Shown one piece after another: positions 1,733 to 8,949 of a stretch of DNA of 8,949 nucleotides. The first letter of the stretch is position 1, and every line of letters starts with the position of its first letter. The translations under genes were made by a program, and so were the position numbers. The stretch lies in the IMG/VR virus record IMGVR_UViG_2713896828_000008; one strand, 5' to 3'. The DNA is from a virus. Taxonomy: Duplodnaviria; Heunggongvirae; Uroviricota; Caudoviricetes. The notes under the pieces were generated by a model. That model worked only from the letters and a program-made list of their open reading frames with translations. It was not told where the DNA came from and did no database searches.

Positions 1733-1761
1733 TTGACTTTTTGAATAAAGTTGGGTAAATT
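1733..1761 (+). promoter_or_regulatory. PR'-like late promoter with overlapping Q-utilisation (qut) region
   Basis: -35 TTGACT at 1733-1738 and -10 TAAATT at 1756-1761 with a 17-nt spacer, followed by TTGACCCAACGATGG, which resembles the lambda PR' initial transcribed region. Position (about 45 nt after the Q stop) matches lambda organisation. Confidence 0.6.
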
Positions 1762-1796
1762 TGACCCAACGATGGATAAATGCACTCGTTAAATAA

Positions 1797-1830
1797 AGCC
1801 CTGAGTTAATAGCTCGGGGCTTTTTGCGTT
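1797..1830 (+). terminator. intrinsic terminator in the late leader (tR'-equivalent)
   Basis: Hairpin 1797-1805 AGCCCTGAG pairing with 1813-1821 CTCGGGGCT (9 bp, one G-U wobble, 7-nt loop) followed by TTTTTGCGTTTT at 1821-1830. Confidence 0.6.
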
Positions 1831-2102: not shown

Positions 2103-2132
2103 TCCCCTTATTGGGGGTAAGACATGAAGATG
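2103..2132 (+). promoter_or_regulatory. S translational control region: sdi-type hairpin sequestering the SD plus dual start codons (Met1/Met3)
   Basis: CCCC at 2104-2107, TTATT, GGGGG at 2113-2117 forms a hairpin over the G-rich Shine-Dalgarno. S begins ATG-AAG-ATG (2124 and 2130), the lambda S107/S105 dual-start arrangement. Confidence 0.5.
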
Positions 2133-2447
2133 CCAGAAAAACATGACCTGTTAGCCGCCATTCTCGCGGCAAAGGAACAAGGCATCGGGGCAATCCTTGC
2201 GTTTGCAATGGCGTACCTTCGCGGCAGATATAATGGCGGTGCGTTTACAAAAACAGTAATCGACGCAACGATGTGCGCCATTATCGCCTGGTTCATTCGT
2301 GACCTTCTCGACTTCGCCGGACTAAGTAGCAACCTCGCTTATATAACGAGCGTGTTCATCGGCTACATCGGTACTGACTCGATTGGTTCGCTTATCAAAC
2401 GCTTCGCTGCTAAAAAAGCCGGAGTAGAAGATGGTGGAAATCAATAA
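2124..2447 (+). CDS. S: class I holin S (lambda type), 107 aa with dual start
   Basis: [39 protein letters not shown]... with three hydrophobic segments and a charged C-terminus; near-identical to lambda S as recalled. Confidence 0.95.
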
Positions 2448-2907
2448 TCAACGTAAGGCGTTCCTCGATATGCTGGCGTGGTCAGAGGGAACTGATAACG
2501 GACGACAGAAAACCAGAAATCATGGTTATGACGTCATTGTTGGCGGAGAGCTATTCACTGATTACTCCGATCACCCTCGCAAACTTGTCACGCTAAACCC
2601 AAAACTCAAATCAACAGCAGCCGGACGTTACCAGCTTCTTTCCCGTTGGTGGGATGCCTACCGCAAGCAGCTTGGACTGAAAGACTTCTCTCCGAAAAGC
2701 CAGGACGCTGTGGCATTGCAGCAGATTAAGGAGCGTGGCGCTTTGCCGATGATTGATCGTGGTGATATTCGTCAGGCAATCGACCGTTGCAGCAATATCT
2801 GGGCTTCACTGCCTGGGGCTGGTTATGGTCAGTTCGAGCATAAGGCTGACAGCCTGATTGCAAAATTCAAAGAAGCAGGGGGAACGGTCAGAGAGATTGA
2901 GGTATGA
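2431..2907 (+). CDS. R: endolysin R (lambda-type lytic transglycosylase), 158 aa
   Basis: [51 protein letters not shown]... matches lambda R as recalled. Start overlaps the S end by 17 nt, as in lambda. Confidence 0.95.
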
Positions 2908-3341
2908 GCAGAGTCACCGCGATTATCTCCGCTCTGGTTATCTGCATCATCGTCTGTCTGTCATGGGCTGTTAATCATTACCGTGATAACGCCATCGCCT
3001 ATAAAGAACAGCGCGATAAAGCCACGTACATCATCGCTGACATGCAGAAGCGTCAACGTGATGTAGCAGAACTCGACGCCAGATACACAAAGGAGCTTGC
3101 TGATGCTAACGCGACTATCGAAAGTCTCCGTGCTGATGTTTCTGCTGGGCGTAAGCGCCTGCAAGTCGCCGCCACCTGTGCAAGGTCAACGACCAGAGCC
3201 AGCGGCATGGGCGATGGAGAAAGCCCAGGACTTACAGCAGATGCTGAACTCAATTATTACCGTCTCCGAAGTGGAATCGACAAGATAACCGCGCAGGTTA
3301 ACTACCTGCAGGAATACATCAGGATGCAATGCCTGAAATGA
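2904..3341 (+). CDS. Rz: i-spanin Rz, 145 aa
   Basis: N-terminal transmembrane segment ([18 protein letters not shown]) then a charged coiled-coil-like periplasmic domain. Start overlaps the R stop (ATGA at 2904-2907). More diverged from lambda Rz than S and R are from their lambda counterparts. Confidence 0.9.
3103..3288 (+). CDS. Rz1: o-spanin Rz1, lipoprotein embedded in the +1 frame of Rz
   Basis: ATG at 3103 preceded by AAGGAG at 3090-3095. Signal peptide [20 protein letters not shown] with a lipobox (VSAC), then a proline-rich mature region [14 protein letters not shown]. The track ORF 3097..3288 starts at an upstream TTG; the ATG at 3103 is preferred. Confidence 0.8.
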
Positions 3342-3377
3342 TCGGGCGATGAAAACCAAAAAAAACAGGAGCAATAC

Positions 3378-3653
3378 ATGACTAAGCTTTATCACCGCAT
3401 CTCAACTTTTCTCTCTGGTTGCTGGGCGTTTATCACGTCTATTTCGTTCGCCATCTTTAGTTTCGGTAGCACAGCGTGCTCGCTTAGTCGGGGTCTGTGG
3501 CGTGCTATTTCAGCACTAGCGCCGAAATTTTTACCTGAAAAGGCTGTTTGGCGAATTGTAGAGCGAATGTGTAGTGAGAGCGTTCGCGAGAAGATTAACG
3601 TATTTGGACGTCATCCTCGAAATACAGGCGCATTGTGCAGTCCGTTACTGTAG
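3378..3653 (+). CDS. hypothetical small protein, 91 aa, hydrophobic Cys-containing N-terminus (possible membrane or lipoprotein), function unknown
   Basis: Strong SD (CAGGAGCAATAC-ATG). N-terminus MTKLYHRISTFLSGCWAFITSISFAIFSFGSTAC is a basic n-region plus a long hydrophobic stretch ending in STAC. No recognisable similarity to lambda Bor, which occupies this position in lambda. Confidence 0.5.
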   Translation: MTKLYHRISTFLSGCWAFITSISFAIFSFGSTACSLSRGLWRAISALAPKFLPEKAVWRIVERMCSESVREKINVFGRHPRNTGALCSPLL

Positions 3654-3745
3654 TCATTCCAAATCCCATCTACGGGTGGGCTTGATAATGAAACCGTGAT
3701 TTACATCCCCACAATCCGGGTATGTAAAAGATAGTTCAGGCGAGA

Positions 3746-3765
3746 ACAGATTTAACTAAATCTGT
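3746..3765. repeat. perfect 20-bp palindrome ACAGATTTA-AC-TAAATCTGT, candidate operator for a dimeric DNA-binding protein
   Basis: Arms 3746-3754 and 3757-3765 are exact reverse complements (9 bp each, 2-bp spacer). It sits in a 283-bp intergenic gap, and no U-tract follows on either strand, so it is not a simple terminator. Confidence 0.5.
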
Positions 3766-3936
3766 GCACCACCAGTTGCGGCAGTACAGCGAAACAACCC
3801 AAGCCAGAAAGTGGGGAAATAACACTGGCAGCCACTGAAAGATGAACCTCCAGCCTTATGGCAAAAAAGATTCTTTGTGGTGGCGGACTGATGGAAAGAC
3901 ATCCTAATCAAGCAACCACTCTACAGGGTCATAATT

Positions 3937-4305
3937 ATGAACGACAAGCAAATTGAAAAAGAAATCGCAGCCAAGGGTAAGGCGGCTCGCGTTACTCCTG
4001 AACACATTGCCAGCATAATCGCCAGCGAACATTACTTTACGGCCGCTGATGGTGCTCGCTTTGCTCATGTGCAGAGAAGCGAAACATACAGCGTAAAAAT
4101 CCCAGACCAGCCTGACGAGCTGGAGCTGCTGACATTCTGCGTTCTGGTGCTGAAGAATGGCTTTACGGTCACCGGGGAAAGCGCCTGCGCCAGCCCAGAG
4201 AACTTCGATGAAGAAATCGGGCGCAAGATTGCTCGCCAGAATGCTGTAAACAAAATCTGGATGCTCGAAGGTTACTTGCTGAAGCAGAAGCTAAGCGAAC
4301 AGTAG
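3937..4305 (+). CDS. hypothetical phage protein, 122 aa (possibly Gp49-like family, unverified)
   Basis: Clean ORF MNDKQIEKEIAAKGKAARVTPEHIASIIASEHYF...LTFCVLVLKNGFTVTGESACASPENFDEEIGRKIARQNAVNKIW. Resembles small conserved proteins found near lysis and packaging genes of enterobacterial prophages. Family name is from memory only. Confidence 0.6.
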   Translation: MNDKQIEKEIAAKGKAARVTPEHIASIIASEHYFTAADGARFAHVQRSETYSVKIPDQPDELELLTFCVLVLKNGFTVTGESACASPENFDEEIGRKIARQNAVNKIWMLEGYLLKQKLSEQ

Positions 4306-5094: not shown

Positions 5095-6314
5095 CCTCGA
5101 TTAATCCTATCTTTGAACCGTTCATTGAGGCGCATCGCTACAAAGTCGCCAAAGGCGGTCGAGGTAGCGGTAAGTCATGGGCAATTGCTAGGCTGCTTGT
5201 TGAAGCGGCGCGTCGTCAGCCAGTGCGTATTCTCTGCGCTCGTGAACTGCAAAACAGTATCAGCGATTCGGTAATCCGGTTGCTTGAAGATACCATCGAG
5301 CGGGAAGGGTATTCGGCTGAGTTTGAAATTCAGCGTTCAATGATTCGTCATCTCGGTACGAATGCTGAATTCATGTTCTACGGCATCAAAAACAACCCGA
5401 CGAAGATTAAATCGCTCGAAGGCATTGATATCTGCTGGGTGGAAGAAGCGGAAGCGGTAACGAAGGAATCATGGGATATCCTGATACCAACCATCCGCAA
5501 GCCGTTTTCCGAAATATGGGTGAGCTTTAACCCGAAAAACATCCTCGACGATACCTATCAGCGATTCGTCGTAAATCCTCCCGATGATATTTGTCTGCTG
5601 ACAGTGAACTACACCGACAACCCGCACTTTCCTGAAGTTCTCCGTCTGGAGATGGAAGAGTGTAAACGCAGAAATCCGACACTGTATCGTCACATCTGGC
5701 TTGGTGAGCCAGTAAGCGCAAGTGATATGGCAATCATCAAACGTGAATGGCATGAAGCCGCAACCGATGCGCACAAGAAACTCGGATGGAAAGCGAAAGG
5801 CGCTGTTGTCTCTGCGCATGACCCATCAGATACAGGGCCAGATGCTAAAGGTTATGCATCGCGTCACGGTTCGGTAGTTAAGCGCATTGCTGAAGGTCTG
5901 CTGATGGACATCAACGAGGGTGCTGACTGGGCTACTTCGCTGGCGATTGAAGACGGTGCTGACCACTACCTGTGGGATGGCGATGGCGTTGGTGCCGGGC
6001 TACGCAGACAGACAACGGAAGCGTTCTCCGGCAAGAAAATCACCGCCACGATGTTCAAGGGCAGCGAATCGCCATTCGATGAAGATGCTCCGTATCAGGC
6101 CGGAGCATGGGCTGATGAAGTAGTACAGGGCGACAACGTTCGCACTATTGGCGATGTGTTCCGCAATAAGCGAGCGCAATTCTATTACGCGCTGGCTGAC
6201 AGGCTGTATCTAACCTGCAGAAGCTTGGTAAGGTTGCTGATAACGAGACTATTTCAAAACTTCAGTCCTATCGTGATGAGCTTGTTCGCAATGCTGGTCC
6301 AGATGGTCCGGTAA
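5091..6314 (+). CDS. terminase large subunit (TerL), C-terminally disrupted; ATPase domain intact
   Basis: Walker A VAKGGRGSGKS and Walker B-like DICWVEEAE. N-terminus resembles P22/Sf6-type large terminases as recalled. The last ~30 codons (about 6215-6314, ...LTCRSLVRLLITRLFQNFSPIVMSLFAMLVQMVR) look like out-of-frame low-complexity sequence and the ORF is about 60-90 aa short of typical TerL length. Likely a pseudogene or truncated allele. Confidence 0.85.
   Translation: MTSINPIFEPFIEAHRYKVAKGGRGSGKSWAIARLLVEAARRQPVRILCARELQNSISDSVIRLLEDTIEREGYSAEFEIQRSMIRHLGTNAEFMFYGIKNNPTKIKSLEGIDICWVEEAEAVTKESWDILIPTIRKPFSEIWVSFNPKNILDDTYQRFVVNPPDDICLLTVNYTDNPHFPEVLRLEMEECKRRNPTLYRHIWLGEPVSASDMAIIKREWHEAATDAHKKLGWKAKGAVVSAHDPSDTGPDAKGYASRHGSVVKRIAEGLLMDINEGADWATSLAIEDGADHYLWDGDGVGAGLRRQTTEAFSGKKITATMFKGSESPFDEDAPYQAGAWADEVVQGDNVRTIGDVFRNKRAQFYYALADRLYLTCRSLVRLLITRLFQNFSPIVMSLFAMLVQMVR

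Positions 6315-7196: not shown

Positions 7197-8949
<1,753 letters not shown>

Follow-up and report, generated by a model that had tools for sequence, protein, structure and literature searches.

Lysis of Gram-negative hosts by phages is usually told as three steps, those of holin, endolysin and spanin. Protein E of phiX174, which has 91 amino acids (aa), an N-terminal transmembrane domain (N-out, C-in) and a basic cytoplasmic part, acts on host MraY. The lambda protein Bor is a true lipoprotein, and its gene, on the opposite strand to the late operon, has its own promoter in lysogens. That membrane-tethered lysis components had been missed became clear with the releasin of phage Mu (PMC9239132). 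This protein, gp25 (DUF2730/PF10805), has 99 aa and an N-terminal transmembrane domain (N-out, C-in) and is a lysis accessory that is not a holin; it serves signal-anchor-release (SAR) endolysins, and its cytoplasmic domain is anionic (PMC9239132). On the gene map of Mu its gene lies between those for the spanins, upstream, and that for the small terminase, downstream. The gene considered here, of 91 codons, also follows spanin genes, Rz and Rz1, on 8,949 nucleotides (nt) of DNA from a tailed phage (Caudoviricetes; IMG/VR virus record IMGVR_UViG_2713896828_000008), the whole of which is called the window below. Its product is a small protein under selection with a hydrophobic N-terminal segment and a conserved C-terminus, and the gene recurs beside unrelated lysis cassettes. 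Our preference, which is tentative and well short of conviction, is for a membrane-tethered cytoplasmic accessory factor of lysis or another late step that acts on a conserved host target.

A selected gene beside unrelated lysis cassettes

Judged by its homologues, the 91-codon open reading frame (ORF) is no chance frame but a genuine gene on which purifying selection is strong. Among 30 distinct homologous DNAs, which extend to 58% nucleotide identity, 29 keep its frame (+1) open, and none has any of the other five frames open. The ratio of nonsynonymous to synonymous change (dN/dS, Nei-Gojobori) is 0.25 for residues 1-24, 0.37 for residues 25-55 and 0.056 for residues 56-91, and 0.20 overall, with a dS of about 1.05-1.26 that is near saturation. 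Variable sites in the C-terminal part (residues 56-91) number 16, 8 and 30 of 36 at first, second and third codon positions. Length is also fixed. A word-indexed search of 5.8 billion proteins gave 53 protein clusters at 55-99% identity, nearly all of exactly 90-91 aa, and an exhaustive profile search of 1.84 billion cluster representatives gave 16 clusters (at 50% identity), all of 87-93 aa except for one 53-aa fragment. Upstream, ACAGGAG followed by 5-7 nt and the ATG is kept in all of the roughly 70 homologous loci while the flanks diverge.

A chance reading frame, with a non-coding element as the source of the conservation, would agree with the habits of annotators: of the 112 E. coli genomes with the ORF, almost all lack a call of it from the NCBI pipeline, and the authors of phage N7, where the gene is present and unannotated, made none either. 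Such a frame would not be open in 29 of 30 homologues where no other frame ever is, nor would it have dN/dS values of 0.06-0.37 at saturated synonymous sites, a fixed length and a conserved Shine-Dalgarno sequence. The open-frame and dN/dS results effectively refute this explanation, to which hardly any credence is left.

The preliminary description of the window, made from its letters and reading frames, had picked out this hydrophobic ORF immediately after the spanin genes, had called its Shine-Dalgarno sequence strong, had proposed co-expression with the lysis genes and had named absence of the ORF from close relatives as a reason to doubt it. Position and signal are as it had them. Rz (PF03245) and Rz1 (PF06085) are confirmed upstream, with 36 nt between the Rz stop codon and the ATG, and the AGGAG, here 6 nt ahead of the ATG, is kept at every locus. 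Close relatives have the ORF, as the open frames just described indicate. Co-transcription with the lysis genes can plainly be inferred, since the gene is on the same strand, directly after Rz/Rz1, with nothing between. Two otherwise near-identical IMG/VR copies are inactivated, one by a stop at codon 81 (L041) and the other by a 1-nt deletion that shifts the frame (L072), so that the gene appears to be dispensable in at least some prophages.

The neighbourhood of the gene was surveyed in 83 loci. It comes directly after a spanin gene in 78 of them, and in most an Rz-type i-spanin gene ends 34-37 nt before its ATG. Other upstream neighbours are a DUF2570/LysC pair about 319 nt away and a 92-aa or 120-aa ORF without a Pfam family, at about 290-335 nt, and the downstream neighbours belong to more than 10 families. 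One identical protein (P0007) follows three unrelated cassettes, namely holin_3_1/GH19/DUF2570+LysC, holin_2_1/lysozyme/Rz and holin_8+holin_3_7/GH108, which argues against a cassette-specific partner. Distant members, at 24-33% identity, are found 47 nt after Rz in another type of podophage, one with an approximately 3,500-aa LPD39 protein, where the gene is last or second-last before the integrase. A further distant member lies 195 nt upstream of a holin of the Phage_holin_2_1 family. Altogether five of seven context classes, which are not fully independent of one another, touch a lysis cassette, whatever its type of holin, endolysin or spanin; as a rough estimate, such adjacency exceeds random placement at p~0.003 if three placements are taken as independent.

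The window protein is identical to gp68 of coliphage HK140, labelled 'hypothetical protein', and occurs in exactly this form on at least 1000 contigs, its name always 'hypothetical'. By profile comparison it is a member of PHROG 34701 (unknown function), which it matches at full length (E=7e-57, residues 1-91 of a 91-position profile), and not of the Bor, DUF2730 or holin families. A second match, to phrog_24233 (also of unknown function), covers residues 55-91 only (E=3.6e-5). Pfam, NCBIfam, PADLOC and PDB sequence profiles gave no match above noise for the family, and in Pfam the ORF had none at E<=0.1, while ten relatives, scanned at E<=1, had none above noise. Rfam recognised no RNA family on the window apart from a chance miRNA match, and literature searches on HK140, the motif, the PHROG and the accessions found no mention of the gene. 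The distant members are placed in the family by E-values of 1e-4 to 1e-7 (from a profile without them), by shared length and by the C-terminal motif. Family hosts are Escherichia, Klebsiella, Enterobacter, Citrobacter and Erwinia, in whose phages and prophages it occurs. [A peptide-pattern scan of genome contigs gave a single spurious match, in a low-complexity frame of a Sphaerobacteraceae metagenome-assembled genome (L009).]

In complete E. coli genomes RefSeq/PGAP leaves both Rz1 and the 91-aa gene unannotated. It has nothing between Rz and the Gp49-family gene, where the locus tags skip one number, and most of the listed records among the 112 genomes carrying the ORF (at least 80% of the query) have 'none' under the match. 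A family that is common, strongly selected and recurrent beside lysis cassettes is yet missing from Pfam and NCBIfam and skipped by RefSeq. This annotation gap, for the ORF and for Rz1, is worth closing whatever the function, and the identical copy in HK140, which can be cultivated, is a ready genetic handle.

Anatomy of the protein and the lipoprotein question

The protein reads MTKLYHRISTFLSGCWAFITSISFAIFSFGSTACSLSRG...CSPLL and has the layout of its family: behind a short basic N-terminus comes a hydrophobic helix, then a middle part that varies, and last a basic C-terminus that is nearly invariant (W..IER...N.FGR.PRNTGALCSPLL). On the Wimley-White octanol scale its best 19-residue segment (residues 11-29) reaches -11.0 kcal/mol; the transmembrane domain of Rz scores -8.9, the Rz1 signal -6.3 and the holin -5.4 kcal/mol. 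Intact soluble proteins of the window are at -1.6 or above, except for IstA at -4.0. The non-native C-terminal tail of the truncated large terminase (TerL) frame scores -9.0 kcal/mol, and this hydrophobic tail is an artefact of a terminase/transglycosylase fusion. A weakly hydrophobic domain of SAR type was considered for the 91-aa protein and set aside: the helix is rich in Ser, Thr and Gly but also in Phe and Trp, and its score is strongly hydrophobic. The middle part is amphipathic and Arg-rich in the clade of the window protein and is a second hydrophobic segment in relatives at 24-34% identity.

Conservation is concentrated in the C-terminal module, where residues 56-91 hold 20 invariant alignment columns. 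W58, E62, R63, T83, G84, L86 and P89 are invariant even at 26-32% identity. From W58 the module begins W-R-I-V-E-R-M-C and ends G-A-L-C-S-P-L-L (in full in Table 1). Net charge is about +8 for the whole protein, and the distribution of charge bears on topology. Ten Lys or Arg residues lie in the 61-residue part that follows the helix and two in the N-terminal tail, and because of this, by the positive-inside rule, a cytoplasmic location of the C-terminal part is favoured. Distant relatives have two hydrophobic segments and a basic MRK N-terminus, so that in them too the conserved C-terminus would be inside. AlphaFold2 models from 25- and 40-row alignments, of low confidence, have a helix at residues 3-51, another at 54-73 and the last 17 or so residues as coil; a Foldseek search of viral structures with the model returned nothing (best E=3.4). 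A tail that is conserved and yet is modelled as unstructured suggests a peptide that may dock onto a partner.

The N-terminus had been described beforehand as either a signal-anchor or a lipoprotein signal (...FGSTAC), with an unusually long hydrophobic core. The membrane segment is borne out by its score. The long core and FGSTAC are features of the window protein, but are specific to an E. coli clade; most relatives have a core of 15-17 residues and then charged residues. The lipoprotein signal does not hold for the family. Under a rule of the PROSITE PS51257 type (Cys at 15-35, at least 10 uncharged residues before it, Lys or Arg in the first 7), the window protein passes at Cys34 (FAIFSFGSTAC) and fails at Cys15. 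Also in keeping with a Bor-like or other outer-membrane lipoprotein, cut by signal peptidase II before Cys34 (of FGSTAC) or Cys15 (of LSGC), is a lipobox-like motif, L[ST]GC or ISAC, which 46 of 77 family members have at residues 12-15. However, 72 of the 77 fail the rule that the control, Rz1, passes, and Cys34 meets it only in the cluster of the window protein, to which this residue is confined; it is Phe in a close relative (L033). In most members just 4-7 uncharged residues precede the Cys of LSGC, and the strongest hydrophobic stretch comes after it. Distant members are without Cys15, about ten Lys or Arg in the mature domain would be atypical for an exported protein, and the Bor family (PF06291) had no match in the ORF (Pfam, E<=0.1) or in ten relatives (E<=1). 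Lipoprotein status is thus not a family trait, and it is unlikely in the window protein because Cys34 is limited to one clade, the leader before LSGC is short and the distant members lack the Cys. The probability we attach to a Bor-like or other such lipoprotein is very small.

The prophage remnant, the slot after Rz and its boundary hairpin

The window, 8.9 kb long, comprises the late region of an E. coli prophage of P22/Sf6-like (Lederbergvirus) type that has become degraded. Its order is NinI-like phosphatase, Q, pR'-like promoter and tR'-like terminator, holin, endolysin, Rz/Rz1 and the 91-aa ORF, then a Gp49/Sf6-gp66-family gene, a DUF2560 gene, small terminase, truncated large terminase, fragments and an IS21-family transposase (Table 1). 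The promoter and terminator match the lambda-type late promoter, qut and tR' arrangement in the annotation of HK140. Between Rz and the 91-aa gene a simple consensus scan, by which weak promoters could be missed, found no promoter-like or terminator-like site on the + strand.

Table 1. Coordinates of the 91-aa gene, its parts and the surrounding features in the window
Feature	Position	Strand	Remarks
pR'-like promoter (TTGACT, 17 nt, TAAATT), then 13-bp-stem terminator with T-run	1733-1823		downstream of Q
Holin, lambda-family	2124-2447	+	Pfam PF05106
Endolysin	2431-2907	+	RefSeq name: glycoside hydrolase family 24 protein
Rz (i-spanin)	2904-3341	+	Pfam PF03245; stop codon 3339-3341
Rz1, embedded in Rz	about 3097 or 3103 to 3288	+	Pfam PF06085; clear lipobox, lipoprotein rule passed at Cys20
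Shine-Dalgarno sequence AGGAG	3367-3371	+	6 nt before ATG; read from sequence
91-aa protein-coding gene	3378-3653	+	ATG 3378, TAG 3651-3653; identical to HK140 gp68; PHROG 34701
N-terminal hydrophobic helix, predicted membrane anchor	3399-3467	+	about residues 8-30; includes LSGC (residues 12-15)
Near-invariant basic C-terminal module	3543-3650	+	residues 56-91: AVWRIVERMCSESVREKINVFGRHPRNTGALCSPLL
Conserved extended hairpin	3654-3691	+	starts 1 nt after stop; CATTAC, 9-10-bp stem, GATAATG
Gp49/Sf6-gp66-family gene	3937-4305		followed by a DUF2560 gene
IS100/IS21-family istA	7415-8437

A stretch identical to the window is present in complete E. coli genomes, for example that of strain KBN10P04869, where RefSeq has the integrase, the phosphatase, the terminase and later genes as pseudogenes. 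The integrase of the prophage remnant carries an internal stop. The early region is deleted, Eag adjoining a 5'-truncated phosphatase gene, and the large terminase is cut near 6230, where the frame continues into part of a gene for a lytic transglycosylase (injection protein); next comes a fragment of a tailspike gene. Since the remnant is without an early region, Q-dependent expression in the window itself is doubtful, whatever the gene does in intact phages.

The junction after Rz is filled differently in related phages. Gene 65 in Sf6, and hkbK plus hkbL in HK620, stand between Rz and the boundary, and all join the same sequence; most P22-like relatives match the window only from about 3650 onward. 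The preliminary description had likened the location to that which lambda gives to bor, and as a positional analogue, in a variable cargo slot of which the Sf6 and HK620 genes are other occupants, the comparison stands, but there is no Bor or other Pfam match behind it.

The boundary itself is marked by the hairpin that comes after the stop codon of the 91-aa gene. RNAalifold predicted 16 pairs from 15 sequences; compensatory double changes occur at 10, and the flanks are fixed; homology between loci stops right after GATAATG. The same hairpin is 3' of the unrelated Sf6 gene 65 and HK620 hkbL, and we attribute it to the slot boundary, not to the 91-aa gene. In the window two of the pairs are broken, the + strand lacks a T-run, and Rfam has no match. 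Elsewhere, namely in the distant clades and one sub-clade from E. coli, the gene is followed by ordinary terminators with a GC-rich stem and a T-run. Candidate roles of the hairpin are RNA processing or stability, translational coupling and a recombination joint. Its 3' arm has a Shine-Dalgarno-like GGTGGG and an invariant ATG. This ATG, in GATAATG, was considered as a gene start and rejected, as it opens only ORFs of 2-44 aa that are mostly unconserved (MKP-stop in the window). [In loci L064-L073, of a Klebsiella-type clade, the hairpin ATG, about 35 nt after the stop, opens a 40-44-aa ORF (MSQRGKPYAHHWNPNGGNY...), which, with frame and length kept through many substitutions, is possibly a real micro-gene.] The approximately 245 nt from the hairpin to the Gp49-family gene (3692-3936) have no plausible + strand ORF and are 93-98% identical in many P22-like phages (Sf6, HK620, IME10, JEP4 and others), mostly unannotated, which makes them a conserved non-coding spacer within a late operon. 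Frames of at least 40 aa that overlap them are the 3' end of a 41-aa + frame (3574-3699) and minus frames of 51 aa (3756-3911) and 54 aa (3904-4068).

A hairpin in this position bears on another reading of the gene, in which its product acts in cis as an arrest peptide, or 'monitoring substrate' for membrane insertion, like SecM, MifM or VemP. The helix would report insertion capacity and the C-terminal 34 or so residues, about the length of one exit tunnel, would stall the ribosome at the stop. The stalling would melt the hairpin, which buries GGTGGG-N7-ATG, and in this way make expression of the downstream packaging genes, at translation or transcription, depend on the state of the membrane late in infection. 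An N-terminal membrane segment, amino acid conservation limited to about one exit-tunnel length at the C-terminus with synonymous change free, and a covarying hairpin right after the stop with a Shine-Dalgarno-like run and an invariant ATG are all consistent with it. But in HK620 and Sf6 this hairpin comes after genes unrelated to the 91-aa gene, and its ATG opens only short, mostly unconserved ORFs. Distant clades keep the C-terminal motif although what comes next, 18-33 nt on, is a plain terminator, the downstream genes are unrelated to membrane biogenesis, and no motif of the RAGP/RAPP type is present. The reading, in its report of insertion and stalling as much as in its melting of the hairpin, is highly unlikely.

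Lysis factor or cargo, and comparison with known systems

In the tentatively preferred reading, as an accessory late or lysis factor, the N-terminal helix would anchor a small bitopic protein in the inner membrane. Its basic C-terminal two-thirds would face the cytoplasm and end in a probably extended peptide, FGRxPR[NS]TGALCSPLL. The gene would be transcribed last in the lysis cassette, from the Q-dependent late promoter (pR'), and the C-terminal module would bind a conserved host component and not a particular phage holin, endolysin or spanin. The outcome would be a tuning of lysis, in its timing or in the breakdown of the envelope, or an allied late step. The inside location of the C-terminus, late co-expression, the host target and the effect on lysis are what we infer; a host partner is proposed because nothing else is shared by the cassettes and phage types that this one protein serves. 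The recurrence of a 34-47 nt spacing after Rz in two clades that share 24-33% identity supports this reading of the gene, as do the lack of an upstream promoter-like site in the window and the precedent of Mu gp25, alike in shape and place.

Several observations weigh against it. BPP-1-like phages have the gene as a unit of its own, placed between those for portal and terminase and on the opposite strand. In N4-like phages of Erwinia that are strictly virulent (Frozen, Rexella, Ea9-2 and Tellus; Schitoviridae), the member is gp29, and its gene is among the middle genes, after those for RNA polymerase and far from any lysis cassette. The link to lysis cassettes is therefore not obligatory. The slot after Rz is a known site of unrelated cargo genes, so that adjacency may reflect permissive insertion, and hairpins or terminators follow the gene as they do morons. 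Most P22-like and lambdoid phages lyse without it, and relatives detectable by tblastn are present in only 4 of 50,697 phage records. Profile libraries, and hhalign against Mu gp25, revealed no homology to any characterised lysis protein. Topology and localisation are read from hydropathy and charge counts, and AlphaFold2 confidence is low, with a predicted local distance difference test (pLDDT) of 60-65 and a predicted template modelling score (pTM) of 0.24. In favour of the preferred reading, the N4-like phages that carry a member are strictly virulent, so that the protein must work during lytic growth.

[The BPP-1-like loci are L077 (4695-5335) and L089 (3027-4276), in Enterobacter and E. 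coli prophages; in L077 the gene is preceded by a tRNA-Arg(TCT) and, only ~35 nt before the ATG, a strong terminator, and another terminator-like hairpin comes after it. Gp29 of vB_EamP_Frozen (L096, 5001-5267) has 88 aa and the same C-terminal motif.]

Several of these points would be expected of a cargo gene, or 'moron', for an inner-membrane protein with no part in lysis, at a junction that tolerates insertions. Its function could then be superinfection exclusion, counter-defence or envelope physiology. At the same boundary hairpin the slot holds the unrelated genes of Sf6 and HK620; the gene is a single-gene unit that has moved among at least seven phage architectures; in BPP-1-like phages it stands alone on the opposite strand, and a terminator-like hairpin follows; it is last or second-last before the integrase in the LPD39-type podophages, at the prophage end, a classic place for conversion genes; and in every clade a terminator or hairpin lies 3' of it. 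Known exclusion proteins, among them T4 Imm and HK97 gp15, are likewise small and located in the membrane, with a size similar to that of the 91-aa protein, and the case of T4 shows that virulent phages can carry such genes too. A moron is reportedly defined (Juhala et al. 2000) as an extra gene with its own sigma-70 promoter and a factor-independent terminator. The gene is extra between differently filled neighbours, as comparison with Sf6, HK620 and P22-like phages shows. The downstream structure is a covarying hairpin without a T-run in the clade of the window and a true terminator in distant clades and one E. coli sub-clade. Upstream, however, the simple consensus scan found no promoter-like site in the window, L005 or L077, and for the window and L005 this leaves expression in a lysogen not evident. 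Also against cargo unrelated to lysis are the spacing after Rz that two distant clades share, the cassette adjacency of five of seven context classes with its rough p~0.003 (subject to the same independence of three placements), and the lack of any match to a PADLOC model, both matched PHROG families being of unknown function. Such cargo is the main rival and only slightly less likely than the preferred reading. The preliminary description had offered an envelope-associated moron or a lysis modulator. Both are still live, in narrower form, and the evidence does not choose between the two.

A holin or antiholin, that is, a second pore-former or an inhibitor that sets the lysis clock, would also be small, with one or two hydrophobic helices (two in the distant relatives) and a basic C-terminus, and would be encoded in or beside a lysis cassette. 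Each cassette, though, already has a recognisable holin, and none of 11 members tested reached a Pfam holin threshold. The best trace was to PF10746 (E=0.095, 12.9 bits against a cutoff of 25.4) and fell on a hydrophobic stretch in a single distant member. Co-variation with the holin would be expected of an antiholin, but the same identical protein occurs with three holin families. The second hydrophobic segment has been lost in the clade of the window protein, and we know of no holin C-terminus conserved to the degree of this 36-residue near-invariant module. A protein of this type is improbable. What probability the readings above leave belongs to functions outside them. Nothing found points to a surprising mechanism.

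If the C-terminal peptide proves to modulate lysis or to block superinfection, it would lead to a conserved host target that many phages can use; if the gene is without phenotype, it is one more small cargo gene.

Among known systems, HK97 gp15, T4 Imm and P22 SieA are small inner-membrane proteins encoded by single cargo genes, in the late or early regions of temperate and virulent phages alike, and the 91-aa gene has a similar cargo-like spread. It differs from them in that no sequence similarity was detected, no PADLOC model matched and the scan of the window gave it no promoter of its own. The likeness to lambda Bor is positional, both being small envelope-directed proteins (Bor has about 97 aa) encoded in the variable region after the lysis genes. 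Where bor is a separately transcribed gene, the 91-aa ORF is on the S-R-Rz strand, 36 nt after Rz, without an upstream promoter-like site on the + strand. Class II holins and antiholins, S21 and T4 RI, are similarly small, with one or two helices, a charged C-terminus and a cassette position; the 91-aa family has no holin-family match and is independent of holin type.

The comparison with Mu gp25 is closer in form. Both have about 90-100 aa and an N-terminal membrane segment (the topology of the 91-aa protein being predicted), and both genes come after the spanin genes. Homology was considered and rejected, as hhalign of the family alignment against Mu gp25 gave a probability of 0.14% (E=0.43) and there was no PF10805 match. 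The domain beyond the membrane segment is strongly cationic where that of gp25 is anionic. The endolysin of the window, unlike those served by gp25, appears from its N-terminal sequence and glycoside hydrolase family 24 annotation to be soluble and of the lambda R type, and the family occurs with several endolysin classes. The architecture of phiX174 E illustrates that a protein so built can hit a conserved host target. E, however, comes from an unrelated type of phage that has no lysis cassette, and its specificity is in the transmembrane domain, whereas the conserved part here is the C-terminus. In function the 91-aa protein is best grouped with those small membrane proteins that phages encode beside lysis cassettes or carry as cargo, from which it is set apart by its conserved C-terminal module and its independence from cassette type.

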